DNA of 64,000 nt from a virus (Duplodnaviria; Caudoviricetes), in IMG/VR virus record IMGVR_UViG_3300028832_000097, positions 32,001 through 96,000 of that record. One strand, 5' to 3'. The notes below the pieces were generated by a model that saw only the letters and a program-made list of their open reading frames with translations, was not told the origin of the DNA and searched no databases. Shown in pieces: positions 3,075 through 55,465 of the stretch; position 1 is the first letter of the stretch, and the number at the start of each line of letters is the position of its first letter. A program made the translations under genes and the position numbers.

Positions 3075-3563
3075 TTAGTTGCGTTTCATGGTTGCTTTCA
3101 ATTCATCGGGCAAACTTTTATTATGTAGTAGCTCACGCCTGACAACTTTTTCTGGATAATTTGATAATGCTGCTAATACATCAACAGGTGTGCGAACATT
3201 ACCTGCAATAACAGCTAATATGTAGTTCTTTCGAGAAGGATTAGGAAATTCAATGTATAAATCATAAAGCTTCCTTAATGTTTCAGGATATCTCGAATAA
3301 CGTGCTAACGTGCTGTGTATCAGTTTATAATCTAAATCACACAGTATTTGTTCAAATTCAGGCGGAAGATTTTTATTACACCCCAACCAATCTAAAACAT
3401 ATACATGATCTGGATTTTCATCATATTCCTTTAGTATCTTTCGAAGTGTCCTAACATCTGAAGACGTTTTAGCAATGCCTTGTAGCTCCTGCCATGAAAG
3501 GTCATTAAGAGAGGCTACTGCACAAGTTATGCTGTGCTTAGGATATTTAGTAAATGATTTCAT
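3075..3563 (-). CDS. LRV/HEAT-like repeat protein with class B leader
   Basis: IAGNVRTPVDVLAALS and VRRELLHNKSLP repeats; N-terminus MKSFTKYPKHSITCA. Confidence 0.7.
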   Translation of the reverse strand: MKSFTKYPKHSITCAVASLNDLSWQELQGIAKTSSDVRTLRKILKEYDENPDHVYVLDWLGCNKNLPPEFEQILCDLDYKLIHSTLARYSRYPETLRKLYDLYIEFPNPSRKNYILAVIAGNVRTPVDVLAALSNYPEKVVRRELLHNKSLPDELKATMKRN

Positions 3564-3580
3564 ATTCTACCTCAGCGAAA

Positions 3581-4534
3581 TTAATATTGGAGATACCCCT
3601 TTATTCGTAAAAGAGTATCACGAGCATTGGATGCAACAATTGTACTGCCATCCTTCTTTAGGCGCTCTAATGTATCTTCAGAAGCATTCATGTTTTCCGC
3701 TACACAGTTTCGCACAATAGTAGAAGGGTGCTTACTTAACTTATCTAGTAACTCCTGGGAGATATCAGAACGCCCTGCAACTGCAGCACACACCTCAGAA
3801 ACCTCATCATCTGCTAATTTTTCAATTATATCAACTAGGGTATTAGGATTTAATGCTACGTGCATTCTAACAGTTGCTGAATCATCATCCGAGTATTCTT
3901 CAATTATATCTTCAGGTAAATTAGGATTATGTAACAAATCAACTTTAAGCCAATCTTGCGGTAATTTAGATAACCTACGGATAAGTCGAATGTCTGCAGA
4001 TGTACTTGCCATATCGGAAATATCCTTGTCTGACAGATCCTCTAAAGGCTGTATGCTACATGTTACGACAGATTCTGCAATATAATCAGGATCTATTTGC
4101 AACTTTATGTATTCAGGAGTATTACTATTATCTAATAATGCATCACGTACCATTTGAGTATCATCATCCACCATGGATTCTAAGATTTCTGCGGATGTGT
4201 TTTCTGAGCTTGCAACCAGATACCTAACAAATTTACTTGCATCATGTGCAAGTCGCATCAATGTCTTTTCTGAAGTAGAAGGATTGTCCGCAATATCGCA
4301 TCGTATTGCCATAGGTGCATTCACTACTATTGTATCTAGAATATCTGAAGGGGTATTCTGATTACACGCAAGTCCAGAAAGAACATAATCATCAACATCA
4401 TTAGCAAGTTTCCGCAATAACCGAGTATCATGTGAAAATCTAGCAAGATCGTATCGTGTGTCTACATCTAATTCGGATAATGACTGCACTGCGCATCGTA
4501 TGTAAGTTTTTGGATAGGTAGTAAATTTATTCAT
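3581..4534 (-). CDS. LRV/HEAT-like repeat protein (two modules) with class B leader
   Basis: About 24-aa VRxxVAxNPNTxxxxLxxLAxD repeats; N-terminus MNKFTTYPKTYIRCA. Confidence 0.8.
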   Translation of the reverse strand: MNKFTTYPKTYIRCAVQSLSELDVDTRYDLARFSHDTRLLRKLANDVDDYVLSGLACNQNTPSDILDTIVVNAPMAIRCDIADNPSTSEKTLMRLAHDASKFVRYLVASSENTSAEILESMVDDDTQMVRDALLDNSNTPEYIKLQIDPDYIAESVVTCSIQPLEDLSDKDISDMASTSADIRLIRRLSKLPQDWLKVDLLHNPNLPEDIIEEYSDDDSATVRMHVALNPNTLVDIIEKLADDEVSEVCAAVAGRSDISQELLDKLSKHPSTIVRNCVAENMNASEDTLERLKKDGSTIVASNARDTLLRIKGYLQY

Positions 4535-4535
4535 G

Positions 4536-4970
4536 TTATCCCTCTAACATTCCGATATTCAATAATGTTGTATATGCACTGTAGCGTACCACTTCATCAA
4601 AATCTTGTCTCAAATTACGCAAAGTATCTGCAGGTGTGTTATGATTGCTTGCAACTGCGCGTCGCACACTCACATAAGGATTTTTTGATAGTTGTGTCAA
4701 CGTATCTGCAGATGTATTTGGATTAGAAGCTACACAACCTGCAACTGCAGATATGTCCTTCGAAAGTTTGTCAAGCAATGCTGCAGGTGTGTTTGGATTA
4801 TCAGCCACCGCAGCACGGACAGACCAACTCTTAGAATTAGCTAATCTCCGTAATGATCTTACATCATCTGTGGTAATTGCAATATCTTGTTGTATATCGA
4901 GATCTTCATCTTCGACAGGCTGCACAGATGCATTTATAGTATATTTAGGACATATTGTATAATGTTTCAT
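4536..4970 (-). CDS. LRV/HEAT-like repeat protein with class B leader
   Basis: VRAAVADNPNTPAALLDKLSKD repeats; N-terminus MKHYTICPKYTINAS. Confidence 0.8.
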   Translation of the reverse strand: MKHYTICPKYTINASVQPVEDEDLDIQQDIAITTDDVRSLRRLANSKSWSVRAAVADNPNTPAALLDKLSKDISAVAGCVASNPNTSADTLTQLSKNPYVSVRRAVASNHNTPADTLRNLRQDFDEVVRYSAYTTLLNIGMLEG

Positions 4971-4987: not shown

Positions 4988-6271
4988 TTACTTTTCTACG
5001 ATAGGAACGTATCCGTCATTGCAGCTAACAAGTGTAGGACACTCAGATTTATTTACTACAAGTTCTTTGATACCTGCGAAATCATAATCAGCATCTTCTG
5101 CGTCCCAAACAACTGTAAGCTTACTGCAGTTATCAAATACACCAATTGAAAGCATATCCTCATCACGGAGTGTTACAGATTGATCTAATTCGATATCTTT
5201 TGCAAAGGAATATGCACCGAATACAACACCTTCAGTATTGAATATTGCAGTCTTTAATTTAGTACAACGATAGAATGCTCTTTCACCAATATGTGTTACA
5301 CCGGATAAATCAATGTTAGTTAATGCAGAATCTTCAAACGCATTGCGACCAATTTTAGTTACATTATTAAATGTTACTTTAGTTACATTTGATCCCTGGA
5401 AGAAACTACCTTCAATACTTGTAATACTATTAGGAAGTACAACCTCTGTAACAGATCTAGGCAGTGCAATATCAGGAATCTCGGTTACACCTTCATCAAA
5501 CTTAACATATGTAGCAGAAGAGTCAATTCTTACAATACTGTTTGCACAGTAAGTTACACCATCCTTGACATAAACCTTGAAGTATTCCCCGATAACAGGA
5601 TGTTGTGCACAGAAATCATAGAAAGCAGGCATACCTTGAGAACGATCATCAATATCATACCAGGAATCTGTTTGAAGATGTAATTGATACTTCTCGCTAG
5701 GGTCAGATTTATTCAGGAAAATAAACAAAGGTCCTTGAGATGTGTATCGCTTCCAATAGTGATCATTACCTTCGTAGGCAGTGCACCAAGAAGCTTTTTT
5801 ACCACCATCCCTAGCAAGCGAAATTGATCCTGCGTAGGTGAGTGGTTGCCAAACTTCCCAATTATCTTCTGACACAAGGAATTTTTTATCGTCGTCCGAA
5901 GCATGATGTGCTTGTTTCTTGAGCAGTTTCGCTTTCTCTTTTTCTGTTAATTCTCTGTTACCTACAGCATGTGTTGCTGCTAGAAAATCTTCAAAAGTTT
6001 TATAAGCCCCAATATCTGGGTTAGGATATCTCTTGTACTGCTTAGAGAACAGGTCTAATGCGTCTTTCAGATTATCATAATCAGATTCTGTAATATTTCC
6101 TGCATTGTATTGTTTCAAGATCCAAGGGCAATACTTGCCCCCTTTACCCGAAGAATAATTAGAGGTAGGATCTAATTCAATTAATTCCGTAAATACATCC
6201 TCTGGAATTTCTTTTGCAAATTGTGTTTTAAGATTCTCTACGGATACCGCAGATCTAATGTATCGTTTCAT
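4988..6271 (-). CDS. WCTA-motif domain plus BspA-type leucine-rich repeats, class A leader
   Basis: SWCTA...GPLFIF..EKYQLH domain; C-terminal VTKIGRNAF/VTHIGERAFYRC LRR_5-like repeats; starts MKRYIRSA. Confidence 0.7.
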   Translation of the reverse strand: MKRYIRSAVSVENLKTQFAKEIPEDVFTELIELDPTSNYSSGKGGKYCPWILKQYNAGNITESDYDNLKDALDLFSKQYKRYPNPDIGAYKTFEDFLAATHAVGNRELTEKEKAKLLKKQAHHASDDDKKFLVSEDNWEVWQPLTYAGSISLARDGGKKASWCTAYEGNDHYWKRYTSQGPLFIFLNKSDPSEKYQLHLQTDSWYDIDDRSQGMPAFYDFCAQHPVIGEYFKVYVKDGVTYCANSIVRIDSSATYVKFDEGVTEIPDIALPRSVTEVVLPNSITSIEGSFFQGSNVTKVTFNNVTKIGRNAFEDSALTNIDLSGVTHIGERAFYRCTKLKTAIFNTEGVVFGAYSFAKDIELDQSVTLRDEDMLSIGVFDNCSKLTVVWDAEDADYDFAGIKELVVNKSECPTLVSCNDGYVPIVEK

Positions 6272-6298: not shown

Positions 6299-6679
6299 TT
6301 AATAGCCCCAATCGTCATCCCATTCTTCATCTTCAGAATAGGCATCGTCTAGTTCGTCATCTTCAATAGATTCTAACTGAGACATATCAAATTTTTCAAT
6401 CTTTTCATATGCCTTATCATCAATCCAACCCATAAATCGCTCAGGGTTGATCCAGCCAATATTCTTATCATCGTAGTAAATTACGCAATTTCCAGATTTA
6501 TCTGCTTCACCAAACTGAACATGAGGATCATTTACAATGTTCATGAATACTTGTAGCATCGGCTCGCCTTTGTGCTCTTTGAGAGAATTCTTTATGATCT
6601 GCTTAGGTGTAAATACTAAACTAGCAAGTTGTGTAGCTTTGTTTGTAAACTTATTTGCACATCTGATATACTTCTTCAT
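6299..6679 (-). CDS. Hypothetical protein with class A leader and acidic tail
   Basis: Start refined to ATG 6679 (AGGAGG RBS); MKKYIRCA. Confidence 0.7.
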   Translation of the reverse strand: MKKYIRCANKFTNKATQLASLVFTPKQIIKNSLKEHKGEPMLQVFMNIVNDPHVQFGEADKSGNCVIYYDDKNIGWINPERFMGWIDDKAYEKIEKFDMSQLESIEDDELDDAYSEDEEWDDDWGY

Positions 6680-6729: not shown

Positions 6730-6735
6730 AAGGTT
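6730..6735 (-). promoter_or_regulatory. AACCTT-class promoter motif
   Basis: TAACCTTTCATA about 50 bp upstream of the 6679-3075 leader-gene operon. Confidence 0.55.
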
Positions 6736-9341: not shown

Positions 9342-9791
9342 TCAATAACCGGAGTAAGGCAACTGCTTTTGCAAGTATTGCTCTAGTACCTGCTTCGCCT
9401 TCTGAAGGTCAGCATAATCGCGGATGATGATTTTGTATGTGCCCCATTGAGAATTTTGATAGTTACGAACTTCATCAAGCCCGAAATCATAAAATGCATC
9501 TAGTAATTGTGCATTATCCTTGCTGTCCAGAATTTCCAATACACAAGGATATTTATCAGCAGCCGAAGAACTATACAAGCCGCCCGGCACCCATCCAGAA
9601 GTATCTCGTCTACCTACGCATATGGAAAGTCCATGACCATAATCACGAGGAAATGAAAATACATATTGTTTTGATCCGGAAAGATAATCTTTCTTGAGAT
9701 TATATTCCGAAAATACACGAGTAACTGCATCGCAGATCTCGTCTTTGGTTGAAAATCCATCTGAACTGTTGGCACGAATATATCTTTTCAT
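9342..9791 (-). CDS. Hypothetical protein with class A leader
   Basis: MKRYIRANS. Confidence 0.7.
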   Translation of the reverse strand: MKRYIRANSSDGFSTKDEICDAVTRVFSEYNLKKDYLSGSKQYVFSFPRDYGHGLSICVGRRDTSGWVPGGLYSSSAADKYPCVLEILDSKDNAQLLDAFYDFGLDEVRNYQNSQWGTYKIIIRDYADLQKAKQVLEQYLQKQLPYSGY

Positions 9792-9917: not shown

Positions 9918-11171
9918 TTATGAGAATGAAATTCTCAATGGGCTAACGACATGCCCTCTATCCCATTGCTCGAAAGCGTTTGGGACTACTTTTTTCATTA
10001 TTTGATATGCACCGTTGATATCTGCATTGATTAGCAGCCCTTCATTTGATTTGAATAATCCTCTGTGAACCCTTCTAGATTTGTTATAGTAATCTTTGTT
10101 AGGTTCTTCACCATCTAAAAAGCTAGTTCCGCTAGTGTATGATTCTTCTGTACAGATTGTATCAATTCCATTAACTTGACCTTTATATTTCACCATATCA
10201 ATAAATCTAGTATGTGGAATATAGACGAAATTCTGATTAGTTCTACTTCCCAGATTGATAGAGCCTTTCCAGCTATCATTCTTACCGATAATTATTGTAT
10301 TGATATCATTCTGAACGCAATATTCAATCAAGTATTTAGAAGCACAATGTAAGTAATCTTCAATCTTCCGACGTCGCTTTTCAGTTAATCTATCAAGACG
10401 ATGTGTCCAATCTAAGTTATGACGGATCTTTGCTTCTGACCTCAATTCTGACTGCTTCTTGTTATAATATTGATTTATAGATTTTAGACTCTTGCCATTG
10501 ATAACAAACGGGTGCAAACTTTGATCGTTTGTCACGCAAGCTGCTAGATTATCTAAACCTAAGTCAATACTTAAATATCTAGAATTGTCAGGCTTGGTAT
10601 CAGGAACCTCAACAGTGTATGCTATAAATATTTCAATTTGATACTTCTTAGAAATTATTTTAATCTCGTTGACTCGCTGAAATCCTTCTTTGTGGAAACA
10701 AGCAGTATAGATTTTCAATCCATTGAATTTCTTCGGCAGCTTGAAAGAACCGTCGGGTAATAGGTATGCGCTATAATCTCTGCCATTAGGACCAGTTGTA
10801 ATTGTAAATGGATATCTACCGTCTTTTTTCAGATACTTTGGTATTTTAGGCTCTCCTGGATATTTATCTGGATTCTGTTTCCAATTTTTATGAGCTGCAA
10901 AGTAAGCTTTCCAAGTACTGGATACTTGCCTTAAAACTTGTTGAGCAGAAGCCATATCTAACATGTTCCGATAATCTCGATATTCTGTATCATCTCGAAG
11001 AATGGATTCAAAATTTGATGCAAACTGAAAATTTTCATTAAACAGTGAGTGCCTTGTGAGATAAAGAGATTTGTTATATAGATTTTTAGCTCTAAAGCAC
11101 AGATCGTCTAATTGTTCAAATCGTGGATCAGATTTAGTTACTATTTGTCTTTCAGTCAACTTAGTCTTCAC
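9918..11171 (-). CDS. tnpB: TnpB RNA-guided nuclease (rearranged RuvC-II type)
   Basis: LYNK helix, SIDLGLDN (RuvC-I), IIIGKN, EESYTS, NADING (RuvC-III); GTG start with AGGAGG RBS. Confidence 0.9.
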   Translation of the reverse strand: MKTKLTERQIVTKSDPRFEQLDDLCFRAKNLYNKSLYLTRHSLFNENFQFASNFESILRDDTEYRDYRNMLDMASAQQVLRQVSSTWKAYFAAHKNWKQNPDKYPGEPKIPKYLKKDGRYPFTITTGPNGRDYSAYLLPDGSFKLPKKFNGLKIYTACFHKEGFQRVNEIKIISKKYQIEIFIAYTVEVPDTKPDNSRYLSIDLGLDNLAACVTNDQSLHPFVINGKSLKSINQYYNKKQSELRSEAKIRHNLDWTHRLDRLTEKRRRKIEDYLHCASKYLIEYCVQNDINTIIIGKNDSWKGSINLGSRTNQNFVYIPHTRFIDMVKYKGQVNGIDTICTEESYTSGTSFLDGEEPNKDYYNKSRRVHRGLFKSNEGLLINADINGAYQIMKKVVPNAFEQWDRGHVVSPLRISFS

Positions 11172-11222
11172 GGTTTCACCTCCTTTCTATATAATTTCAT
11201 GAAGTTGATCCTATTAATTAAT

Positions 11223-11669
11223 TTAATTATTTTCTTCTATCAATTCCTTTATTTTCTTTCTAGTATTCCGCTTAGAATATAATTTCATTGAGTAGCAGTG
11301 TAGCAAGCTAATAATTTCTTCAAAGATTTCCTCACTGTCTAGCTTTGGAGATCCTACTTCGCTCATAACTTCTATTTCACAGTTGTATTTCTTAAAAAGG
11401 TGATAGAATAGATCAAATCCTACTCTAGATAATCTATCTTTGTAGGAAATAACAACTCGTTCAACTCTCCCTTCGATAACATCGTCAAGCATTTCAAAGA
11501 ATTGTGTTCGTTTCTCAAAACTTATTCCGCTTGCAATGTCTGAATAGATAGCTGATATGGAATATCCTTGATTAAAGCACCATTGCCTCAACATCTCTAT
11601 TTGATTTTCGAGATCTTTCTTTTGAGTAGATGCAGAAACTCTAGCATAAATATAAGTCTTGCGCTTCAC
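11223..11669 (-). pseudogene. tnpA: IS607 serine recombinase TnpA lacking the N-terminal HTH
   Basis: YARVS..QK.DL..Q, DIASG and KDRLSR motifs. The upstream in-frame remnant SDVYKIAYGN is preceded by a stop, and there is no RBS. Confidence 0.75.
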
Positions 11670-11694: not shown

Positions 11695-11916
11695 TCAGAA
11701 TTTGTTTATATATTTTTCGTAGATTGCATCAAACCCGCCTTCCCATCGCTCTATCCACTTAACGCATTCTTGCCGACTAGAAAATCCAGAATCGTATCCA
11801 TGTTCATATAAGTAATCTGATACTTCCTTAGCTTGTTCAGTATTTAATTCAGAATTCTGCGAAATGAATCTAGGGCTAAAGATTCCATTCCAAGACGCTT
11901 TTATATATCTCTTCAT
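11695..11916 (-). CDS. Hypothetical protein with class A leader
   Basis: Start refined to 11916 (GGAGG RBS); MKRYIKAS. Confidence 0.7.
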   Translation of the reverse strand: MKRYIKASWNGIFSPRFISQNSELNTEQAKEVSDYLYEHGYDSGFSSRQECVKWIERWEGGFDAIYEKYINKF

Positions 11917-11936: not shown

Positions 11937-12260
11937 TTACCAAGTAGCTGTCATAACTAATCTATTTCTTAGATATGCAGGTCTACCCTTGTATTTTATC
12001 ATACTCCTAGTGTTGAATTCACCCTTAGTCAGGTACTGAACATCTCGCTTTTCAAATGATATATCAAAACCATTATCAGCAAACCACTTACCTAACATTC
12101 CGTCGTCCATAACAAATTCTACAGTAGAATCTGGGCCGAACGGAATTACAATTCGATGATTAGCTAAATCAACTGTGCTTCCTTTGAAGCCCTCGGCAAA
12201 CTCAACCGCTTGGTCTAATGTTGATTTTGGTATTTCTGTGCATCTAATGTATCGTTTCAT
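11937..12260 (-). CDS. Hypothetical protein with class A leader
   Basis: MKRYIRCT. Confidence 0.7.
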   Translation of the reverse strand: MKRYIRCTEIPKSTLDQAVEFAEGFKGSTVDLANHRIVIPFGPDSTVEFVMDDGMLGKWFADNGFDISFEKRDVQYLTKGEFNTRSMIKYKGRPAYLRNRLVMTATW

Positions 12261-12287: not shown

Positions 12288-12689
12288 TTACTCATCATAA
12301 CGACGTGTATAATAATGCAGACGTTTCTGCAGATTTCGCATACAATTCTTTGTGCGCCATTCTGATTCGGTCCACTCGATAGTTGAACTAGTTTCACCAA
12401 TGACTGTAAATTCAAATCGAATGACTATCACATATTCACCCCAAACCATGTGTTTAGGGAATACTTCAATTTCGTCAATCTCTACATTAGGGTATTTATT
12501 AGCAAAAGCAACAAGTTTTGGCTCTACTTCTGCTAGTAATTCAGCACATTCATTATCCATCAAAGATTGACGTTTCTCAGCTGCGTTGCGACGATTACTA
12601 GCAATATCATCAGAAATTGGATATTCATACACAATCTCATTGGACTTACTTAAAAAATTTGTTGTTGTAGATTTAATGTATCGTTTCAT
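12288..12689 (-). CDS. Hypothetical protein with class A leader
   Basis: MKRYIKST. Confidence 0.7.
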   Translation of the reverse strand: MKRYIKSTTTNFLSKSNEIVYEYPISDDIASNRRNAAEKRQSLMDNECAELLAEVEPKLVAFANKYPNVEIDEIEVFPKHMVWGEYVIVIRFEFTVIGETSSTIEWTESEWRTKNCMRNLQKRLHYYTRRYDE

Positions 12690-12940: not shown

Positions 12941-12964
12941 TTATGTTTTTATGTATCGTTTCAT
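12941..12964 (-). other. Leader-only mini-ORF MKRYIKT*
   Basis: ATG AAA CGA TAC ATA AAA ACA TAA between two genes. Confidence 0.6.
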
Positions 12965-12969: not shown

Positions 12970-13875
12970 TCACCAATCATATTCAGTTTCAAGTATCTTA
13001 CGCATACTTGTAATTTCACGACGAATACTACGAAGTTGTTTGAATGCTTCTCGTGTAGCATAAGAATTAAGTCCCATATCTTCTCCATATTTTTCTATAC
13101 TCTGCTTGACAGATTCGAGGCTATGAAGAGCAATCCTATAATCACGAACTGAATTTCCAAAACGATGCATTAGATTTTCATATGCGGTGCTAGAATAATC
13201 AAGATTACCTTCACGGTCCTTACCAAACGTGAATGAATCTACGTTGAATAGATCATCTTTCAGAGCTGCAAGGTCATCATGAACTTCTTGAGCTGTTTCA
13301 GCAAGTTTGTCTAACCCCTCCTTAGAGCTATAGAATTTTAACAGTCTTTCATCAGGATTAGGGATTATGTAGCCTGACTTATCACGTTTATCACTACCAT
13401 ATCTACCGCGAGAAGTTGTTCTACCTTGTGCGGACCAACCGCCTGCATCCCAACTAGACGCGTCTTTGTAGTATTGACCAGCATACTTGCCATATTGATC
13501 ATATCTAGGATCTTGATAGCGCTCCTTACTAGGCTTGGCGTTATCTGCGATATTTACATAGACAATGTCTGCAATAGGCAGATTTTTCTTTGCAATATAC
13601 TTTACTGCCTTATATCCACCATCATAAGGATCTGTGAAATACTCGTTGTCGTTGTATAGTCCTGGAATCCAAACTGTAGGCCATGTGCGAGATGCACCCT
13701 GTTTCTGCAATAAGTAGACTGTATACTGCTCGCCACTTTTTCCTGTTTTTGATGTGCTGAATGTAGCATTCTTCAAATCAATTCCAGCCCTAGCAAGTGC
13801 TCTGAGCGCATTCTTATCATTTTGCAGCCAACTAGGTATCCAGTTATCAAATGATGCTCTAATGTACCTTTTCAT
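12970..13875 (-). CDS. Hypothetical protein with class A leader
   Basis: MKRYIRAS; AAGGAG RBS; AACCTT motif at 13946-13951. Confidence 0.75.
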   Translation of the reverse strand: MKRYIRASFDNWIPSWLQNDKNALRALARAGIDLKNATFSTSKTGKSGEQYTVYLLQKQGASRTWPTVWIPGLYNDNEYFTDPYDGGYKAVKYIAKKNLPIADIVYVNIADNAKPSKERYQDPRYDQYGKYAGQYYKDASSWDAGGWSAQGRTTSRGRYGSDKRDKSGYIIPNPDERLLKFYSSKEGLDKLAETAQEVHDDLAALKDDLFNVDSFTFGKDREGNLDYSSTAYENLMHRFGNSVRDYRIALHSLESVKQSIEKYGEDMGLNSYATREAFKQLRSIRREITSMRKILETEYDW

Positions 13876-13957
13876 ACGATTTCTCCTTTATGTGGGTATA
13901 GTTACTTCAACTAATTACTCAATTGTGTAGTATCATAACATATGAAAGGTTAAAGCA

Positions 13958-14269
13958 TCAACAATCTATTGATGATTTTATTTTATTATACAGTGGTAGA
14001 ATACTTTCAGGAATATCTCTAGCAATTTGTTTAATGTTAATATCATAATATACCTGTAACGCCGTGATACTTAACGATAACTCCTCGATTGTAGGTATCT
14101 TAATAGTTTCCCCACCCGCATACTTGCACAGGGTTATCAGGCTATCTGCGCCAATTATAGAAAATAATTCAGGTAACCATGCATATTCAGGAACTTCATG
14201 CAAGACAGGCATCAGTTCAAGTAAATATGCAAAATCAACTTCTTCAGATTTACTTAAGTTATTCTTCAT
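13958..14269 (-). CDS. Mor-like DNA-binding protein (tentative)
   Basis: IIG...L...GGETIKIP pattern; start refined to 14269. Confidence 0.4.
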   Translation of the reverse strand: MKNNLSKSEEVDFAYLLELMPVLHEVPEYAWLPELFSIIGADSLITLCKYAGGETIKIPTIEELSLSITALQVYYDINIKQIARDIPESILPLYNKIKSSIDC

Positions 14270-14733
14270 ACATTTTCGTGTATTCATCAAGAAATCTAGG
14301 GATATCTTGATTAGCAAGTTGCTGAAATACTACACTTAGGTCAGAAGCAGGTAAATTAATATTCTCCATTGCAGTATTGAGCAACTGAGTTTGTAAATAC
14401 AGCTTGATCTGATTGATATCTGATTTTGTCATAGATTCCTCCGAGTATATTCGTCAAGTTCATTCCCTAATACGTTAGGATGATATTTTTCGTATCGCAA
14501 TGTAGGTTCAAAATCTGAATGAACCTCCTTCTGGCACTGAGATATAAGAAATTTAAGTAATTGCAAAAATCGTTTCATTTAGGTTCTGCCCTCTTTGCTG
14601 CTGTACCTTCAGTATGTATGCTACTATATAGTTCATTACGCCAGCAGTTAAATCTATGCACATCTTCTTTGTTAGATTTATCTAAATTAGCAAGTGCTTC
14701 TCTAACAGCTTTCAAATATTCCGCGTGTGTCAT
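14259..14733 (-). other. Three translationally coupled small ORFs (14259-14432, 14429-14578, 14575-14733)
   Basis: Manual translation gives 57, 49 and 52 aa ORFs with overlapping stop/start codons that fill the gap. Confidence 0.55.
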
Positions 14734-16527: not shown

Positions 16528-16569
16528 ATTTACCGCGCCTTTCAATATTATATGTTGAAGTATAACGAT

Positions 16570-39579: not shown

Positions 39580-39587
39580 AGCTCCTC

Positions 39588-40378: not shown

Positions 40379-40381
40379 GTA

Positions 40382-41556: not shown

Positions 41557-41796
41557 TTATTCAAACACCTCATATAATTCATATGCATCTTCTGTATGAT
41601 CAGTAACTTTAGCTTGTCGTATCCAGTCATAATATTTCTTAGGTAAGGTTATTCCATCGTATGTTCGTTTCTTCCACCCTGCACCATTAGTATAATTTAC
41701 TGTATACATATCATATCCCTGAGATTTATCTACAGAGTGTACTATGTAAGATACTTCATAAGGGATTGCTTCTGATGATCTAATGTATCTTTTCAT
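41557..41796 (-). CDS. Hypothetical protein with class A leader
   Basis: MKRYIRSS. Confidence 0.7.
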   Translation of the reverse strand: MKRYIRSSEAIPYEVSYIVHSVDKSQGYDMYTVNYTNGAGWKKRTYDGITLPKKYYDWIRQAKVTDHTEDAYELYEVFE

Positions 41797-41799: not shown

Positions 41800-42246
41800 T
41801 TAATCTCCAAAATCAAAATTATCTAATACATGATTACCTGTCAAATTAGGAACATAATAATGTGAACTAGGTATTACATCATATCTTTGATTTGCAATAC
41901 TGAATTCCTCTGCAATCAGCTTTATTGCATTTTTATCTTCCGCAATTTCTTGACTACAGATTATTTCAAACACTTGTGACCTAATATCATAAACTACTCG
42001 ACCTCTTTCTATTGATCGGTACCCTTTTGGTATCATATCAATAGCTCCAGGTAACTGCTTTTTAATAATAGATTCCCATTCAGTTATATGATTTTTTGTT
42101 TTGCTGAATTGTAGATAACCTCGGTCATCAACAGCATCTTCAATAGGGCAATATTCACCAACAACAGTATTGTCATAAAACCACCAGATACCTACATTAC
42201 CCTCGTGTTGAGGCTTTTCTTCTACTGTTCTGATGTATCTTTTCAT
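41800..42246 (-). CDS. Hypothetical protein (GIWW...RGRV motif) with class A leader
   Basis: Start refined to MKRYIRTV at 42246. Confidence 0.7.
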   Translation of the reverse strand: MKRYIRTVEEKPQHEGNVGIWWFYDNTVVGEYCPIEDAVDDRGYLQFSKTKNHITEWESIIKKQLPGAIDMIPKGYRSIERGRVVYDIRSQVFEIICSQEIAEDKNAIKLIAEEFSIANQRYDVIPSSHYYVPNLTGNHVLDNFDFGD

Positions 42247-42997: not shown

Positions 42998-44908
42998 TTA
43001 TTTTGTTACATGAATCACATATTCGTTGTTCACGCCTAAATGACTTTTGTTTTGAATAGTTTCAACAACGTATTTTTCCCAACCCGGATCAACTACCTTA
43101 CAAACCATAGTAGCATCTACGAAGTTAGGCGCATTTTTCATTGCGATTTCAAGCCATTGACATTGTGTTAAGGATTGTGCAGATTCGTCAAATCCTTCGA
43201 AATTGTAATCTTCAAAACACCTACCAGTATTTGGATCAGAATATGGTGGGCAAATAAATATAGAACATGATTTGTCTGTTTTGAATTCACGACCGTCACA
43301 CCATTCAATATGTGTTTTACCTACTTCATCATACCATTGTACCAGGTCTTTATTGTAGTCACAAGCAATATATTCTCTGTTGAGTTCTTTACAAGCATCG
43401 GCTCTAGCGCCCCAACCTGCAGCTAGGTCGTATATGTTGTCACTGCTACAGTAGTTTGTTATGAGTGATTTTGCACGCTCTTTGCTAAACCATGAAGGCT
43501 GTTTACATGTTCGTGTTACATTCATCGCAGTTAGTATTTGTTTGCTATCTATGAACCCACCAGAATAGTTAATACGATTGAGTATCATTTTCCAACGAAT
43601 TTCAGGATCATAAAACGCTTCATGTGAACTTAATTTTCCATCTACTCTTACATCGTAGAAGCATTTTGGGCGATCTTTAGCATACGGAAACTTTGGACTT
43701 TCTTTGAATAATTCAAAATCTACGCCTATTAAAGGATTAGGGCATTTATCTGAATATTTTAACCCATTGGATTCACTACTATTCGGCTGACCAAATATCG
43801 AATTCACCTTATCAGTTTTATCTGTGATAACAATGACATGATTCTGCCTATATACATCTAATTTTGCAGATATTGGTACTGTCTGTGCATAATCATACAC
43901 TCCATCTAATAAATGTGGACCTTTGACTTCAAGTAGTATATTATCTACTTTGAAATCAATAAGTGTAATGTGTTGTTTACCTGCATATTCAAATGTTAAG
44001 GGCACTTGTGTCTCAATATTGTCGTAGCCTAGATTCAACAAGAAATTATAGAACTGTAATTCGTAATTACTATCAAACCGCTTACCGTCCTTTGCAATAT
44101 TATTTTCTTTATTCAACATCATTCTCTTATGAATCTCTGGAGATTGTGACACATACTCTACCCCAAATTTCTCTCTGTTAGTGTCCTTAGATTTCTGCTT
44201 GACTTCATCTAATTGAAATACATTATCTACACCCTTGTTTTTGAGTGTTTCCGCCCGCTTGTTTTTAACTACTTCAGAAGATAAAAAATGTCTAGTCCCA
44301 TAGTTTTCTAATGAAGTTGCCTTAACTCTTTGTTTATACTCGTCTGTTTGCGTGTACCAATCAACTCCATGCTTCTTTCGATTAGTTTCCTTGATTTTTT
44401 CTACAGAACTATGAAGTTGCATAGGATTATCAACCCCGTGTTTTGATTGCATAGTGTTCCGAAGTGTAGATACCATAGCTTCAATATCCTTATTTTCAGA
44501 AGCTAACTTATACCTACATGTCTTACTACAAGTTTTAACACTAGAATCTCGCCTTACATCTATTTCAAATTGATTACCGCACACTGCGCAAGTTTGATAA
44601 TGCGGATTCTTGCAATAAACATCTCTAACAGAGGATGGCTCAAATTCTTCACCACACCACTTACATATCTTTTTAGAAAGTTTTGCAGAAGTCTCACGCT
44701 TGGATTTTATAAACGCAACTTGGCATTTTTCACTACAAGTTTGCTTTGTATCGGAAGTAGTACAATGTGTTTCAAATTCATTTCCGCAATAAGCACATTT
44801 CCGCAAAATGATAGAATTACAACACTTCTGTCTAGTGGAATTTGGATGGAATCGCTTACCGCACAATATACATGTATACAGCAAATCTGGATCAACTATC
44901 TTTCCCAT
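42998..44908 (-). CDS. Zn-finger repeat / PD-(D/E)xK nuclease / SAM-dependent DNA methyltransferase fusion
   Basis: Four CxxCG..F repeats; (H/Y/F)GVD-type repeats; FDS..E...IDF......LEVKG; IYDLAAGWGAR (motif I) and FICPPY (motif IV). Confidence 0.7.
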   Translation of the reverse strand: MGKIVDPDLLYTCILCGKRFHPNSTRQKCCNSIILRKCAYCGNEFETHCTTSDTKQTCSEKCQVAFIKSKRETSAKLSKKICKWCGEEFEPSSVRDVYCKNPHYQTCAVCGNQFEIDVRRDSSVKTCSKTCRYKLASENKDIEAMVSTLRNTMQSKHGVDNPMQLHSSVEKIKETNRKKHGVDWYTQTDEYKQRVKATSLENYGTRHFLSSEVVKNKRAETLKNKGVDNVFQLDEVKQKSKDTNREKFGVEYVSQSPEIHKRMMLNKENNIAKDGKRFDSNYELQFYNFLLNLGYDNIETQVPLTFEYAGKQHITLIDFKVDNILLEVKGPHLLDGVYDYAQTVPISAKLDVYRQNHVIVITDKTDKVNSIFGQPNSSESNGLKYSDKCPNPLIGVDFELFKESPKFPYAKDRPKCFYDVRVDGKLSSHEAFYDPEIRWKMILNRINYSGGFIDSKQILTAMNVTRTCKQPSWFSKERAKSLITNYCSSDNIYDLAAGWGARADACKELNREYIACDYNKDLVQWYDEVGKTHIEWCDGREFKTDKSCSIFICPPYSDPNTGRCFEDYNFEGFDESAQSLTQCQWLEIAMKNAPNFVDATMVCKVVDPGWEKYVVETIQNKSHLGVNNEYVIHVTK

Positions 44909-45097: not shown

Positions 45098-46570
45098 TCA
45101 GAATACGCCGAGGATCTTACCGCTGACGATTGTATCAGGGTTGACAATCTTTGTGCCGTACATCGTACAATATCCTTGTTGTACAGAGCTATTAGCAAGA
45201 CCAATTGCATCCGTATTTGTCAGAGGCATATATTCTCCGAAGAGAGCACTGTTTCTTCTGATGTCTGCGGACTTGCAGCACATTACCCAAGTATCAGGCT
45301 GATAGTTAGGATCAACGATGATATCGAAGTTGTCAAGTCTACCGGACTTGTAAGGACCAACGTTCTCAGAAGCGCCTTCTGCTACGAAACCGTTCACCAT
45401 ACCAAGGTATGTGTTAACGTTTGTACCAACGATGAGCTTGTTAGGCTGAGCAAGTCTTGTTGATTGATAGATAGAAGCAGCTGCCTGGTTCAGCTTAAGC
45501 TTGAACATGTTGAGGTAATCAGAAGGTACTACAGAACCTGAAAGTACAGGAGAAGCATCGAAGTTGAACTGAGGCTTCAATGTAGCAGCATCTGCGAGTT
45601 CCTTGAAGCAAGCAGAGTTGATCTCAGCTGTGAGCTCTGAGAAAGCAGCTTCCTTAGCGATGTCGCCGATGTTTGCACCGTATTCCTGCTGAGCAGCAAA
45701 TGCGGAGAAGACAGACCAATAGCAAGCAAGCTGATGAGCTTCTGCTACCATGTTGATCTCATCAAGCTGGAGGTAGCCCTTACCCATCTGTGCGCCATAC
45801 TCATAACCGTAACCACCGTTACCAGGTACACGAGGACCAACGTTCTCGTTGTCGTACTGATATGTACCGGATACTACGTTACCAGCAGCAGCGGCGATAA
45901 CACCAGAAGAGAAGCTAATAGCGCCTGTTGAATAATTGATGTAACCTACAGGTGTTGTAGAACCGCTCTGGCAAAGATTTCCGTTACCGTCATCAACGAA
46001 GAGTGTTGTTGCACCAGATGCTGTGTACTTGATTGTAACAGAATTAGGAAGTACAGGAGTATAAACGAGAACCTGTGAGTCTGTGATAGCTGTACCCTCA
46101 GACATGATTTCGTTCTTTACAACCCTACCTGTGAAGTTAGGATCAATACCCTGTCTGTTTGCGAAAGGACTAGAGAATACATCTCCTGCCTTTGTTTCGC
46201 CCTTTGTATTCTCAGCGATGAACTTGAAGTAAGGAATGAGCTGCTGACGAGACTTCATTGCAACTGAACCAAATACGTCAAGAACGAGGAGCTTCTGTAC
46301 GAAGAGAGGAAGCAGCTCAAGGAAATCAGGACGAGCCATGATGTTTGTTGTGTTAGTAGCAGCTGTAACGGGCTGGAGCTGTCTAGCGTTAGCCTTTAAC
46401 TGCATAGCAAACTTTCTCTGCTCGGGAGAAAGGCTTGCCATAATAGAAGATGAAGGTGTTGTAACCTTGCGAGGAGCTGCAGCAGAAGTAACACTTCTAG
46501 AAGCCATGATAGGTCTTCTTGCATAGCTAGCAGGAGCAGCAGCTCTACGTGTAACTTTAGTAATAGCCAT
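45098..46570 (-). CDS. Major capsid protein (T4 gp23-like)
   Basis: ELTAEIN, YMPL and G..TMYG motifs; directly downstream of the prohead protease and followed by a terminator. Confidence 0.85.
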   Translation of the reverse strand: MAITKVTRRAAAPASYARRPIMASRSVTSAAAPRKVTTPSSSIMASLSPEQRKFAMQLKANARQLQPVTAATNTTNIMARPDFLELLPLFVQKLLVLDVFGSVAMKSRQQLIPYFKFIAENTKGETKAGDVFSSPFANRQGIDPNFTGRVVKNEIMSEGTAITDSQVLVYTPVLPNSVTIKYTASGATTLFVDDGNGNLCQSGSTTPVGYINYSTGAISFSSGVIAAAAGNVVSGTYQYDNENVGPRVPGNGGYGYEYGAQMGKGYLQLDEINMVAEAHQLACYWSVFSAFAAQQEYGANIGDIAKEAAFSELTAEINSACFKELADAATLKPQFNFDASPVLSGSVVPSDYLNMFKLKLNQAAASIYQSTRLAQPNKLIVGTNVNTYLGMVNGFVAEGASENVGPYKSGRLDNFDIIVDPNYQPDTWVMCCKSADIRRNSALFGEYMPLTNTDAIGLANSSVQQGYCTMYGTKIVNPDTIVSGKILGVF

Positions 46571-46595: not shown

Positions 46596-48080
46596 TTATA
46601 GTGTAACAAGTCCGTCGTCTGTATCACCTAATGAGGAAATCTCCTGCATAGCAGTTTCTTCAATAGCTGTTGTCGACTTAATCATCTGCTTCAATTGCGA
46701 AACAGAAGTCGAACCTGTTACAGCGACGTTGTTTAGAGATACTCCAACTGCGCTTGCGTAGAGATTAGCATAAGCATCTTGGTACTCCGCAATGATCTTA
46801 TGTGCAGACTCTAATTCAGATCTAAGGTGTGAAAGCTCTGCATCTCGGTTTGATGAGGCAGTTTGGATACTACGTGCAGCAGTGACAGTTTCATTGAGCT
46901 TCGTTTCCAGATCTGCAATGTTATCTTCCTTAGCCTGAATGGCTTGCGTAGAGGATTGGATCTTCTGTTTATATTTAAGGTTATCAGCCTTTAATATATC
47001 GATTTCTTTCTGCAACGCTTCTATTTTATTAGCATATTTTGAAGATTGCGTGTCCATTGTAGCTTGTATATCTTGAGATGCTGTAATAGATCTCTTCAAC
47101 TCTTGATTATTCTTAGCGATTTGAGATTCTAAAACAGAAACTTTATCACGGAGTTTTGTAGATGCTTGAATTGCTTTAGCCCGGTCACTAGAAATAGATG
47201 CTAACTGCATGTCCATATCATGTAACTGTGCGGACATTATCCTTTCCATTGTCTTCTGTTTACGCTTATGAGCCTTAGATTCATCGGCAAGTGACTTCTT
47301 AAGAGATGCAATAACTACATCTTTTTCTTTACATGCTTGCGAAGCTTCTACATAAAGTTCTGTAAGTGCTTCAATCTTATTACCTTCGACATCAACTACA
47401 TCTTCTAGTTCTTCAGAAGTAATTGCTGCCTTCTTTGCTTCAAGTTTTCTAAATGTATCAGACTGCCTAGCAAAACATGACTGAATAACTTCAATGGACT
47501 CCTTTGTATTAAGACCATCTATGTTATTATCAACTGCTGCACAAATCTTCTTATATTTCTGCCTACTTTCGGTATCAGTAGCTGCAGCAATTTCAGTAAA
47601 TGTTGGAATTGATTCAGGGAATGCAGGGAATGTTACAATATCAAACCCGCGGAATACAAATGTTTCAGGATCAACGGAATTACCTACAATATCTCCTGCA
47701 CCTCTAACAGAGATTCCAAATGTTACTCCTGCATCAATGAATGTTTTTACTATTCTACCAACAGGAGTGTCAACAAGGTCAAATTTTCCATATATTTTAC
47801 CACTATCATCAATATGACCTTCAGTCATAACGATACAAGCATCTTGGAAGTTCATACAATTAGGATCTTCCGGATGTCCGAGATAGCCAATATACCATTT
47901 TTTCTCAATTGCCTCTTTGTAATCATCCGATTTAAATACGTTCTCCCATACCTCACGAGTAATGTCTAATCCATTTTTATTCGTGATGTTTGCATCAGCG
48001 CATTCGCCTTCAAATGTCCCTAAGATTGCTTTGTCCTTTACATCTGCAACAATTGGAGATTTAACTGCCATATTACTCAC
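46596..48080 (-). CDS. Prohead protease (T4 gp21-like) fused to coiled-coil scaffold
   Basis: N.NG, GYLGHP, TPVG, GISVRGAG and FDIV..PAF motifs; C-terminal coiled coil. Confidence 0.88.
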   Translation of the reverse strand: MSNMAVKSPIVADVKDKAILGTFEGECADANITNKNGLDITREVWENVFKSDDYKEAIEKKWYIGYLGHPEDPNCMNFQDACIVMTEGHIDDSGKIYGKFDLVDTPVGRIVKTFIDAGVTFGISVRGAGDIVGNSVDPETFVFRGFDIVTFPAFPESIPTFTEIAAATDTESRQKYKKICAAVDNNIDGLNTKESIEVIQSCFARQSDTFRKLEAKKAAITSEELEDVVDVEGNKIEALTELYVEASQACKEKDVVIASLKKSLADESKAHKRKQKTMERIMSAQLHDMDMQLASISSDRAKAIQASTKLRDKVSVLESQIAKNNQELKRSITASQDIQATMDTQSSKYANKIEALQKEIDILKADNLKYKQKIQSSTQAIQAKEDNIADLETKLNETVTAARSIQTASSNRDAELSHLRSELESAHKIIAEYQDAYANLYASAVGVSLNNVAVTGSTSVSQLKQMIKSTTAIEETAMQEISSLGDTDDGLVTL

Positions 48081-49607: not shown

Positions 49608-49662
49608 TATTATAGATACTATGATACAAGGTTGTAGAATGCGTATAATTATAATTACATTA

Positions 49663-52832: not shown

Positions 52833-52837
52833 CTATG

Positions 52838-54733
52838 TTATGCTCCTACTATATATTCTTCTGCAATGCGTATGTTATTAGATCCTAACACATCTAAGTA
52901 TCTTGCGAAACTTATTGGGTTGAAGTACTCCGGATCACAATTGTCCCAGACGATTACCGGGTTAGTTAAACTCCCTGCATCAAAATAATCAATTCTATCA
53001 TCCGCTTTTCTTATTATGTTCACGACTTCCATAAGTGTAGGCTTATCACCTATATTGCGATTGGAAGGTGCATAATATAGGGCTAGTGCTTCTTTCACTC
53101 TAGCAACGATATTATTTGCTACGTCCCGACTAACAGGTTTCTTAGGATATATTTGTCCTACTACATGAAATGTAAATAATCTAAGATATCCAAATGCTAA
53201 TTCAACGGACATGGCCTGTAAAGGTCTGTAATCTCTTATTACATTTTCAACAAACTGAATAGGTGGCTTGTATTGCGTAAATACAATCCTATCAGAAAAC
53301 CTTTGAGATACTTTACTTTGAGAAATCTGACTGTTTCCCCAAGAACTATTCTGAAAATCATTGTGAATTGCGAAACACATTGCTGTGTAAGTTTTAAAAT
53401 TGGAGATGAATTTCTTAGAATCTTCGACATTGTATTTCGCATTCAACATCGGAGTCCAATCTCGATTAGGATCACCTTGTGGAAAATCTTGATTGGTGAT
53501 ATACATTTTAGCCTTCTGTATATCGCTTAAGGTAGTATCATCAAATATTGCTTCATTTATTTCTAATGCCTTTTGACAATCAATAACTACGCCACAATCT
53601 ACACCAGGTTCACGATTCAGAAATCTTGTGAAGTCTGGCAAAGTAATTAAGCTGTCCCATGTGTTTATGTAGTTACGGCTAGATACATATGCTTCTTTTG
53701 CAGTTTCAGGGCTCTTACCGGTTACTGTGTAGGTATGAGGTAATTCGACTGTGTTAGAAAGGTTCGATATCAGCAGATCCCCGGACTGCTCCAATCCAGT
53801 ATCAGGATTCTTTGCTGATAGGAAATTACTAAGTACGTTAGTACCTACACACCCAATAACACCTGAACAATCAATCCAATAAACGGTAAGATAGTTATTC
53901 TCATAATTCTCAAGCTGATTCAAGTAGTTACTAACTTGTATTTGTGCATTTGAATAAGAATCATATGTAACTGCGAACCTAGGTTCGGGTACTACAAACT
54001 CTGCAGGGCTCTTACATTGTACCCATTGCGTAGCTAAGAAGCTATCTGCGTTCTGCGAAGCTTTAGCTTTTATCCATATTGCAGTAGTATCAATGTGCTG
54101 AGATGGTACATTTATAATGTAGTTATTTTGTTTGACCTGCTGAACAGATACACTGTAACTACGTAATTCACCTTCGACTGCTACACGAGTAACACTTTCG
54201 CCAGGTGATAATGTAACTTCGTCAGTATCTGCAAATATATTTATTGCTTCTGTAGTAGTTACACGTTTACTGCGGGTATCTTGTGTACCGTATGTATTTG
54301 TCATAGGAAGTATGTTGTAAGTAATTACACGAGATTGATCTGTTATATCTGTATAAGCATTCAATGTTGCGAAGTTAGCGCCATTGAATCCAAAATCAAG
54401 TCGGAAAGTGTAATCAGAATTATTAGTAAATGTAACTTCCGTTCTAGCTGCTGTAAACCATCCAAGATCATATCCAATCAAGCCAAAAAGCTTCTCAGCG
54501 TTTTTCCTCTGAGATACCGAAGGTGCAAATAACTCATTGGCTAACCAATCTAAGTTAACACCTAAAACATCTGCTACACTTGCAAGGAATTTACCAAGTA
54601 CTACACCAGGATCTGCATCGGCTTCAGGCTTCCATAATTCAGTCATAGTAGGAACTATTGCCCAAAAATCCTCCATTATGGATTGATAATCTCGGGATGT
54701 ATACTTAACAACGCCGCGTGTATAATCGTCCAT
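52838..54733 (-). CDS. Baseplate wedge protein (T4 gp6/baseplate J-like)
   Basis: YTSRDYQSI, DPG, G..PET...LIT..DF motifs. Confidence 0.8.
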   Translation of the reverse strand: MDDYTRGVVKYTSRDYQSIMEDFWAIVPTMTELWKPEADADPGVVLGKFLASVADVLGVNLDWLANELFAPSVSQRKNAEKLFGLIGYDLGWFTAARTEVTFTNNSDYTFRLDFGFNGANFATLNAYTDITDQSRVITYNILPMTNTYGTQDTRSKRVTTTEAINIFADTDEVTLSPGESVTRVAVEGELRSYSVSVQQVKQNNYIINVPSQHIDTTAIWIKAKASQNADSFLATQWVQCKSPAEFVVPEPRFAVTYDSYSNAQIQVSNYLNQLENYENNYLTVYWIDCSGVIGCVGTNVLSNFLSAKNPDTGLEQSGDLLISNLSNTVELPHTYTVTGKSPETAKEAYVSSRNYINTWDSLITLPDFTRFLNREPGVDCGVVIDCQKALEINEAIFDDTTLSDIQKAKMYITNQDFPQGDPNRDWTPMLNAKYNVEDSKKFISNFKTYTAMCFAIHNDFQNSSWGNSQISQSKVSQRFSDRIVFTQYKPPIQFVENVIRDYRPLQAMSVELAFGYLRLFTFHVVGQIYPKKPVSRDVANNIVARVKEALALYYAPSNRNIGDKPTLMEVVNIIRKADDRIDYFDAGSLTNPVIVWDNCDPEYFNPISFARYLDVLGSNNIRIAEEYIVGA

Positions 54734-54769
54734 CTATAACCTCCAGTAACATTATAATTTAATAGAAGG

Positions 54770-55465
54770 TTATTTACTGTACTTAATAGTATTTCCTTCT
54801 ATTGTGCGAGTGATGTATGTAGAAGATAGTACCACCTTGTCCGCTTCTAATATCTCTGCCTTTGTAGCTCCTAAGAAATATTCTTGATATCCATTTGCAG
54901 ATTCTCGAAGTATTGTATATCTGATAGTAGACGGTCCTTTATCATACTTCAATATGAAATCATCAATAATTACTTTGTTCCAATCAAATGAATCATCTGA
55001 AGTTATTCTAAATTCTACGGCATTACCAAATATAGATATTTTAACATAATTGTCCTTACAATAGGTGTACCACATTTCGTTTAGATCTTCAAAATCCTCA
55101 ATGAGATATTCTAACTCATTGGCAGTGTAAGGGCATTTACTGCCGAGCCCTACATATTGTTTCAAAATGTTCGTGTATTTAAGCTCGCAATAAATATCAA
55201 ATCGCGTTCTATCAGCAATTGTAGGAGTTAATGTGTGTAAGTATTCATACAAACAGTACCAATAAACAACTACACCATCCTCTTTATCTGCTCCAGCGTT
55301 TTCTATAAGAAAATCAATGTCAGTAGGGCAAAGATGCTGTATTCCTCGTGACATATAAGTAGTAGAAGGAACATGTAAATCTACTGAATATAAATTTCCT
55401 GAACGGTCTAACAAATAAGAACCCTTTTGTAATGATATGTTAGCTGTGATATATCGCTTCATCAT
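54770..55465 (-). CDS. Hypothetical protein with class A leader
   Basis: (M)MKRYITAN. Confidence 0.65.
   Translation of the reverse strand: MMKRYITANISLQKGSYLLDRSGNLYSVDLHVPSTTYMSRGIQHLCPTDIDFLIENAGADKEDGVVVYWYCLYEYLHTLTPTIADRTRFDIYCELKYTNILKQYVGLGSKCPYTANELEYLIEDFEDLNEMWYTYCKDNYVKISIFGNAVEFRITSDDSFDWNKVIIDDFILKYDKGPSTIRYTILRESANGYQEYFLGATKAEILEADKVVLSSTYITRTIEGNTIKYSK

Follow-up and report, generated by a model that had tools for sequence, protein, structure and literature searches.

A short N-terminal leader on unrelated proteins of an uncultured myovirus: a possible load-and-trim tag for the phage head

Introduction

The proteins that bacteriophage T4 injects into its host include the anti-restriction protein IPI* and the ADP-ribosyltransferase Alt. 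The diverse internal proteins of the T4 head have in common only a capsid-targeting sequence (CTS) of ten residues at their N-termini, which directs them to the scaffolding core and is removed by the prohead protease gp21 (PMC3012670, PMC9026906, PMC8442874). In the CTS, MKTYQEFIAE (PMC8442874), residue 4 (Tyr) serves targeting and residues 8 and 10 (I-x-E) serve processing (PMC9026906); the proteins behind it are hypervariable (PMC3012670, PMC9026906) and 'highly basic' (PMC8442874). Here we describe a short peptide leader, and a longer form of it, with which many otherwise unrelated proteins begin in a 64,000-nt window of phage DNA: bases 32001-96000 of the 170,977-bp IMG/VR virus record IMGVR_UViG_3300028832_000097, which is rated complete by CheckV.

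The leader has much of the anatomy of the T4 CTS. It begins M-K-x-Y and ends I-x-(P1), here I5-x-A7, and it is the only common part of diverse, fast-evolving proteins; homologues of gp21 and of the capsid protein gp23 are encoded, and the tripeptide shape of the leader's end recurs in the capsid propeptide and in a scaffold-like region. It differs from the CTS in length (7-8 residues for the short form and about 12-17 for the long, against 10), in a P1 residue that is small (A/S/C) and not Glu, in departure from the [LI]-x-E rule, in the number of tagged genes (about 49 against a handful in T4), and in the character of the putative cargo, which is acidic where the T4 internal proteins are basic.

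All characterised proteases of the gp21 family cut after Glu (PMC9026906), the site being A-X-E in SPN3US (PMC10052503). In phages phiKZ, 201phi2-1 and SPN3US (gp175, gp245) a diverged gp21-family protease trims many head proteins, the propeptides hold redundant sites, and the protease processes itself (PMC9026906, PMC10052503); these features have likely counterparts in the present phage, unlike the Glu specificity and the propeptides themselves, which are mostly 111-254 amino acids long and protein-specific, with no common short tag. A further parallel is herpesvirus assemblin, which is of the same fold class and likewise joins a protease to a scaffold domain. The substrate mimic of human cytomegalovirus (HCMV), R-G-V-V-N-A-S-S-R-L-A, has the shape V-x-A↓S (arrow, cut; PMC3853728, PMC13486704), resembling the leader end Y-I-R-A-S and the propeptide site P-I-M-A-S, and the assemblin release site lies at about the position of a conserved E-I-A-A-S that closes the phage protease domain (architecture, PMC4498786). 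In sequence and structure, however, the phage enzyme is nearer to gp21. A (V/L/I)-X-A↓S consensus is regarded as general to herpesviruses, the substrates cited here being those of HCMV; no leader-tagged cargo is known from these viruses.

Two other systems bear comparison. One leader protein carries the ART-PolyVal domain, reportedly described by Iyer et al. in 2017 from the polyvalent proteins of phages and conjugative elements, which are thought to be delivered with the DNA; here, unlike there, separate small proteins bear one tag each in place of one giant protein. The host protease Prp cuts after Phe-Phe or His-Phe in ribosomal protein L27 and in the capsid protein of phage 80-alpha. Processing of the Prp type was rejected for the leader, which has no aromatic pair before its small residues and whose motif also marks the phage's own protease.

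Results

Occurrence and conservation of the leader

The genome (~171 kb; G000) is that of an uncultured myovirus in which the minus strand carries nearly all genes. All tallies rest on our own call of 238 genes, and comparisons were made to four relatives, G002 (the record of L045), G003, G004 and G005 (the record of L046), from an uncultured myovirus clade with genomes of about 120-250 kb. A blastn search with the head region against cultured phages gave no match, and tblastn found only relatives at about 27% identity; the nearest by capsid identity (~27%) are Bacillus phage HSE3, Streptococcus phage GXN1 and Listeria phage LIS04.

An initial annotation of the window had listed 12 starts with the leader, counting a variant at 28779. 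Every one is a real minus-strand gene start with the peptide as described, but the list fell short, since the window holds 11 more genes with a long leader. Across the genome the leader begins about 49 of the 238 genes, or about one in five, a total to which two mis-called starts contribute. Twenty-eight have the short form MKRYI[RK][AS] (class A) and 21 the long form MK-x-F-T-x-x-P...[IV]-K-[AS] (class B; in its general form M-K-x-[FY]-[TR]-x-x-P, a few residues, then [IV]-x-[AS]).

The short form is much commoner than chance would give and almost confined to protein starts. A degenerate DNA pattern for M-K-R-Y-I has 18 matches on the coding strand of the genome and none on the opposite strand or in a reversed control. 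Of the 25 instances of K[RK]YI in the three coding-strand frames, 24 come immediately after Met; 22 called proteins have it at the N-terminus and none has it further in, over 52,541 residues. Aligned class A leaders (n=27) have M in 27, K in 26, R in 23, Y in 25 and I in 26 at positions 1 to 5. Position 6 is R or K in 18 of 27, position 7 is S, A, T or C in all 27, and position 8 is S, A, T or N in 23, with no conservation further on.

It is the peptide that is conserved. Leader Arg is written CGA 12 times, AGA nine times and AGG and CGC once each, which bears out the synonymous variation first noticed in the window. Third codon positions are 58% identical, against 82-88% at positions 1-2, and the 40 nt on either side of the leader are as alike as random sequence (identity 0.28-0.32). 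Random flanks, freer third positions and the use of both CGA and AGA for Arg together indicate selection at the level of the peptide.

Behind the leader the proteins go their own ways. BLAST places 44 leader proteins, stripped of their first 22 residues, in 40 clusters, so that the bodies are as unrelated as the annotation had supposed; it was also right that replication genes lack the leader and that no hydrophobic stretch follows it, residues 8-25 being, on direct reading, polar and without relation from one protein to the next. The same reading, which showed no hydrophobic core, lipobox or twin-arginine motif, led us to reject Sec, Tat and lipoprotein signals. The string MKRYI was found in no paper.

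Portability and relatives

By a narrow pattern the short leader begins 27 genes in G003, 15 in G002 and three in each of G004 and G005. A wider look brings in MKVYI, MKLYI and about 30 MKIY[AC]S paralogues in G002, and MKR[IV][IV]xCS in G004 and G005. Among orthologues the prefix drifts while the ending stays [IV]-x-[AST]-[AS], and one body domain has the short leader in G000 and the long leader in G002. The tagged proteins themselves are mostly private to one lineage: 38 of 47 (81%) have no homologue in the four relatives, compared to 78 of the 191 other genes (Fisher p = 6e-7). A search for genes whose presence follows leader abundance (in G000, G002 and G003 but not in G004 or G005) gave a single non-leader gene, which sits in a mobile-element-like region.

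Pfam matches few of the bodies, namely a BspA-type leucine-rich repeat (LRR) protein, LRV/HEAT repeat proteins and the ART-PolyVal protein (PF18760, E = 1.8e-14; ART, ADP-ribosyltransferase). The last has 38 metagenomic relatives, and nearly all of the 36 that were aligned keep the leader. Their order is a conserved leader, a variable linker with insertions and deletions, and a conserved H-Y-E fold with invariant H45, Y74 and E173. In an AlphaFold2 (AF2) model of the family (mean predicted local distance difference test, pLDDT, 85), whose top fold matches are PARP ART domains, residues 1-7 score below pLDDT 50 and residues 1-11 are coil, which places the tag outside the fold.

The phage's own copy of this gene is frameshifted (L014:5300-6018; G000 153300-154017, minus strand): the last ~43 residues, including E-F-V-C-F with the Glu that is invariant in the orthologues, continue in another frame. 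A pseudogene, a programmed shift or an error of assembly could each account for it. As to arrays in the relatives, the ~30 small G002 paralogues (MKIY[AC]S...G-K-D-x-W-V-K-V) lie within tail and baseplate operons at 113-116 kb and 137-148 kb, and G005 has arrays with 14 MS[IV]YVK proteins at 75-87 kb and 107-109 kb.

Head machinery and the common motif

The head protease gene (46596-48071, minus strand; 491 amino acids) encodes a gp21-type protease, residues 1-165, followed by a coiled-coil, scaffold-like tail. It matches Peptidase_S77 (PF03420, E = 2.3e-8, 34.2 bits against a gathering cut-off of 27) and phrog_207 (E = 7e-25). An AF2 model of residues 1-200 (pLDDT 80) has chains of T4 gp21 (5JBL) as its top Foldseek matches (E = 2e-6; template-modelling score, TM, 0.57-0.70) and herpesvirus assemblins next. 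When the protease was compared with the PDB by sequence and by profile, only the coiled-coil tail gave matches, gp21 being reached by the fold search with the N-terminal domain. In 23 clade sequences H66 (L-G-H-P) and S121 (G-I-S-V-R-G) are invariant and are the candidate catalytic His and Ser, while residues 200-491, a coiled coil, are poorly conserved. The layout thus joins a protease to a scaffold-like tail, in a gene directly upstream of that for the capsid protein. The major capsid protein (45098-46570, minus strand) is of the gp23 type (PF07068, E = 2.7e-15, with phrog_138 among the matches of the head genes) and starts with a basic propeptide of ~79 residues. A complex prediction for the protease domain (alignment A2) and a 73-residue leader protein scored 0.02, which is no verdict either way.

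The capsid propeptide contains PIMAS, VTSA, SIMAS, VTAA and NIMA-R, all ahead of the conserved core. We drew on 52 related IMG/VR loci (capsid identity 53-73%), which yielded 44 distinct propeptides. These diverge freely yet keep 3-5 copies of [IV]-x-[ASG]-[ASG] each: 168 in the 44 mutually related sequences, compared to 35.5 in composition-matched shuffles. The phage's own protease tail has eight copies where 2.4 are expected (p = 0.002). Sites of the form I/V-x-A-[AS] are conserved by position at the protease N-termini and in the E-I-A-A-S that ends the protease domain (residues 161-164), and the tail keeps R-I-x-[AS]-x-Q, T-V-T-A and V-T-A-S-T. An unbiased positional scan of all proteins in G000, G002 and G003 found residues 1-5 to be 3-5-fold enriched in the terminal motif; G000 shows a second enrichment of this tetrapeptide shape, matching the long class, at residues 11-15.

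Glu is rare in these propeptides. The mean is 0.66 Glu, with none in 18 of the 44 and at most one in 42, against a mean of 13.6 Lys plus Arg; a rule of cutting after Glu cannot apply to them. The Thornevirus-like nearest cultured relatives have acidic propeptides with 6 Glu and 4-6 x-x-E motifs. HSE3, GXN1 and LIS04 have the layout of a long protease and capsid gene in common with G000, and no repeated N-terminus was found in any of the three, LIS04 with its acidic, Glu-rich propeptide included. A basic propeptide free of Glu, the [IV]-x-[A/S] motif and the leader thus occur together in the clade.

Promoter-like motifs

Intergenic regions contain two promoter-like motifs, AACCTT and ATCGTTA, each with TATAA ~10 nt downstream. 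AACCTT precedes the terminase, portal, sheath, capsid/protease, baseplate and fibre genes; ATCGTTA, which is of a replication type, precedes the clamp loader, helicases, SbcC, ligase and a tRNA-ribosyltransferase (TGT). Six AACCTT sites stand before cassettes made almost wholly of small leader genes, among them 28821-28826 (cassette 28779-25295), 13946-13951 (cassette 13875-11695) and 6730-6735 (cassette 6679-3075); the head operon with protease and capsid genes has its own at 49628-49633 (all on the minus strand). In G000 the leader genes divide between AACCTT, ATCGTTA and no assignment as 27/9/11, compared to 63/71/42 for other genes (odds ratio 3.4). The association of leader genes with the motif of the structural genes, first noted in the window, holds for these 27; it does not extend to the nine behind ATCGTTA, and the relatives are mixed. 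Gene order in G002 is in keeping with it, leader arrays being embedded in tail and baseplate operons. Most, but not all, leader genes are likely to be expressed late. A further promoter-like site is found at 16563-16569 of the window, and G003 also has sites of a TTGACT type.

Leader genes of the window

The genes that follow are all on the minus strand. The cassette behind the AACCTT site at 6730-6735 opens with a class A gene at 6299-6679 (126 amino acids, MKKYIRCA), 56 nt from the site, and continues with another at 4988-6271 (427 amino acids, MKRYIRSA), in which an unknown N-terminal domain precedes a BspA-type LRR (PF13306 LRR_5, E = 3.8e-19). Three paralogous class B genes with LRV/HEAT-like bodies complete it: 4536-4970 (144 amino acids, starting MKHYTICPKYTINAS; PF01816, E = 5e-16), 3581-4534 (317 amino acids; PF01816 LRV, E = 1.2e-17) and 3075-3563 (162 amino acids, starting MKSFTKYPKHSITCA). 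The middle one consists of two leader-plus-LRV units in tandem, joined at V-V-T-C-S, after which the body starts as in its paralogues. The junction looks like a retained processing site, and the product is possibly a two-part polyprotein.

A second cassette starts with a class A gene for a 301-amino-acid protein at 12970-13875 (MKRYIRAS; AACCTT 76 nt upstream) and includes class A genes at 12288-12689 (133 amino acids, MKRYIKST; no Pfam family matched), 11937-12260 (107 amino acids, MKRYIRCT) and 11695-11916 (73 amino acids, MKRYIKAS). Within it an orphan leader, MKRYIKT followed by a stop (12941-12964), lies 37 nt upstream of an unrelated 72-amino-acid gene and may be the scar of a cassette exchange at the leader. 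A class A gene at 9342-9791 (149 amino acids, MKRYIRAN) again matched no Pfam family.

The variant at 28555-28779 (74 amino acids, MKRVIMSA) encodes the sole leader protein conserved in all five genomes; its orthologues have differing prefixes that all end [IV]-x-[AST]-[AS]. Downstream are a class A gene at 27702-28037 (111 amino acids, MKRYIKSS) and, in the same AACCTT operon, four consecutive class B genes at 25295-27075 (196, 114, 110 and 167 amino acids; MK-x-[FY]-[TR]-x-x-P...[IV]-x-[AS]). Four more consecutive class B genes occupy 39280-40864 (99, 105, 149 and 160 amino acids), beginning MKRTFTKHP, MKRQFTTRP, MKRTFTTYP and MKKQFTKLP. Class A genes follow at 41557-41796 (79 amino acids, MKRYIRSS) and 41800-42246 (148 amino acids, MKRYIRTV); the latter has a 74%-identical G002 orthologue that starts MKLYVRTA. 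The last, at 54770-55465 (231 amino acids, MMKRYITA; start also listed as 55462), sits between structural genes of the baseplate operon behind an AACCTT site.

Two possible atypical leader genes, recognised by direct reading, stand outside the tallies: 27462-27680 (72 amino acids), with a basic, capsid-propeptide-like N-terminus containing K-V-T-A-G and V-I-T-A-S, and 30913-31164 (83 amino acids), with 17 basic residues ending P-I-K-A-S.

Discussion

A proposed load-and-trim tag

We give an even chance to the reading that the leader is a load-and-trim tag akin to the T4 CTS, read by a head protease with an assemblin-like [IV]-x-A↓S specificity. It is favoured because the anatomy of the leader follows the logic of the CTS, with I-x-A in place of I-x-E. 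What the sequences show is a tag that is portable, a set of head proteins and a motif common to both; from these we infer that tagged proteins would be bound, cleaved, packaged and ejected. The initial annotation had proposed that a portable tag targets proteins to the capsid. The portable, peptide-selected tag on hypervariable proteins, the gp23/gp21 machinery, and the motif in both propeptide and protease speak for that proposal, which stands in part: the tag is there, and delivery may be its use.

The tag would have two parts, a prefix M-K-[RK]-[YF], to which the long form adds T-x-x-P and a few residues, and a terminal [IV]-x-[A/S/C]-[A/S/T]. Tagged proteins would be made mainly alongside the structural genes and be recruited by the tag to the prohead core as it assembles about the gp21-type protease with its coiled-coil, scaffold-like tail. 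Once the shell has assembled, the protease would cut behind the small residue of [IV]-x-[A/S], freeing a tag of 7-15 residues, and by the same rule would degrade the capsid propeptide and its own tail. The trimmed cargo would be kept in the head and enter the next host cell along with the DNA. This cargo would comprise ~50 mostly small, acidic, hypervariable proteins, LRR, LRV/HEAT and PARP-like ADP-ribosyltransferase proteins among them. A wider claim, to which we attach somewhat less than even confidence, is that the clade has re-tuned a gp21-type protease from Glu to an assemblin-like [IV]-x-(A/S)↓(S/A), and that a seven-residue tag (M-K-R-Y plus I-x-A) loads into the capsid up to ~50 exchangeable, mostly acidic effectors per genome for delivery.

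Several observations weigh against this. Some 50 different packaged proteins would be unusually many for a 171-kb genome, and the bodies are mostly acidic (median isoelectric point 4.8, only 2% above 8). The replication-type motif precedes nine of the leader genes, with 11 more unassigned; for the link to AACCTT a Fisher p of 0.004 is too optimistic, because genes within an operon are not independent, and exact-string replication in the relatives is poor (AACCTT to ATCGTTA 6:6 in G003 and 3:12 in G002, with most of the relatives' genes unassigned). Leader Tyr is TAC rather than TAT by 19:6 although the genome prefers TAT by 69:31, and CGA is over-used for Arg, a skew that hints at an RNA-level constraint or at a leader copied recently. 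There is little information in the terminal motif, and the shuffle tests on 44 propeptides are not independent, the propeptides being related to one another. G004 and G005 have the same propeptide motifs with few leader genes, so the protease rule alone does not account for the expansion of the leader. Finally, the phage and its clade relatives are all uncultured.

Alternative explanations

The leader might address a partner other than the protease, such as a chaperone, an enzyme that modifies proteins, a protease or degradation system of the host, or a place in the cell; its likeness to the propeptide would then be coincidental or reflect a common partner that is not a protease. We regard this as unlikely, if worth keeping in view. 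The motif is short, the nine genes behind the replication-type promoter fit such a role, and the N-terminus of T4 gp23 is said, in a report cited by PMC10052503, to target GroEL. On the other side, direct reading found none of the secretion features, no gene family follows leader abundance across the five genomes, and the occurrence of the motif at the protease's own N-terminus, at its domain boundary and in its tail points to the protease.

A second possibility retains the protease and dispenses with delivery. The leader would be a substrate or recognition tag for the head protease, and the proteins would be core or scaffold-like parts that are degraded and expelled, or proteins inactive until trimmed, or the trimming would take place outside the prohead. 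The sharing of the motif supports this as well as it supports the load-and-trim tag; small acidic proteins would sit poorly beside packaged DNA, and the leader-like junction inside the product of 3581-4534 is polyprotein-like. We nevertheless think it quite improbable. Hypervariable, lineage-specific proteins make poor assembly components, the ADP-ribosyltransferase, LRR and HEAT repeat proteins look like effectors, and proteases of the T4 type are active only inside proheads, as established for T4 (PMC9026906).

The common start might instead be a feature of translation initiation or of the mRNA, for example an A/T-rich unstructured start or the operator of a translational regulator like T4 RegA, and not a functional peptide. 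MK starts are generally favoured, and the TAC and CGA skew would be in keeping with such a role. Yet Arg switches between the CGA and AGA families, variation is far greater at third positions than at the first two, and in the long class, as in the orthologue variants, it is the type of residue and not the bases that is preserved; moreover, highly expressed structural genes lack the leader, upstream regions have nothing in common, and the motif is never found behind an internal Met. This explanation is very improbable. We give least credence of all to the idea that the likeness is one of inherited fold, each N-terminus being the opening structural element (a beta-strand) in diverged paralogues: true paralogues do exist (the LRV group, the ~30 MKIY[AC]S proteins of G002, and an MSIYVK family of G005 whose conservation continues into the body), but 40 unrelated body clusters, with all-helical repeats, LRR and the ART fold among them, and a leader that in the ART model is unstructured, outside the fold and followed by a variable linker, leave it hardly any room.

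Implications of the putative load-and-trim tag

The principle of a load-and-trim tag is known from T4. New here are the peptide, its spread over a fifth of the genes and, in a protease of the gp21 family, a predicted cutting rule that does not involve Glu. If the reading is correct, a simple sequence rule picks out, for each phage, dozens of proteins that the infected cell contains from the outset, and the tag becomes a sequence index of injected counter-defence or host-takeover proteins, with hundreds of unexplored injected-protein families across the clade. The enzyme would be the first head protease of the gp21 family predicted to cut after a small residue and not after Glu, and a functional bridge between phage gp21 and herpesvirus assemblin, with a bearing on the evolution of specificity along the phage-herpesvirus lineage. 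At seven residues the tag would also be about the smallest capsid-loading signal known.

Other features of the genome

An SNF2-type helicase (31169-33847, minus strand; 892 amino acids) carries an insertion that resembles an intein and includes an HNH endonuclease: Intein_splicing, PT-HINT and HNH_3 match at residues 175-421, before the SNF2 domain. Four genes of ~600 amino acids have a common Cys-rich N-terminus, one in the window (42998-44908, minus strand) and three elsewhere in G000 (13376-15208 and 15294-17096, minus strand; 18211-19854, plus strand). The window copy matches DUF7487, N6_N4_Mtase (weakly) and homing-endonuclease PHROGs, and the three minus-strand copies have both promoter-like motifs upstream.

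Reading of the sequence also suggests two possible mobile elements on the minus strand. One, at 9918-11669, has a serine-recombinase-like N-terminus (Y-A-R-V-S...Q) beside a 417-amino-acid open reading frame (ORF); the other, at 56865-58818 in the baseplate operon, pairs a helix-turn-helix-like ORF of 206 amino acids with an ORF of 450. Outside the window, a queuine tRNA-ribosyltransferase (TGT/DpdA-like; L012:341-1330, G000 112337-113329, minus strand) ends the clamp-loader cluster and matches phrog_887 (E = 8e-35).

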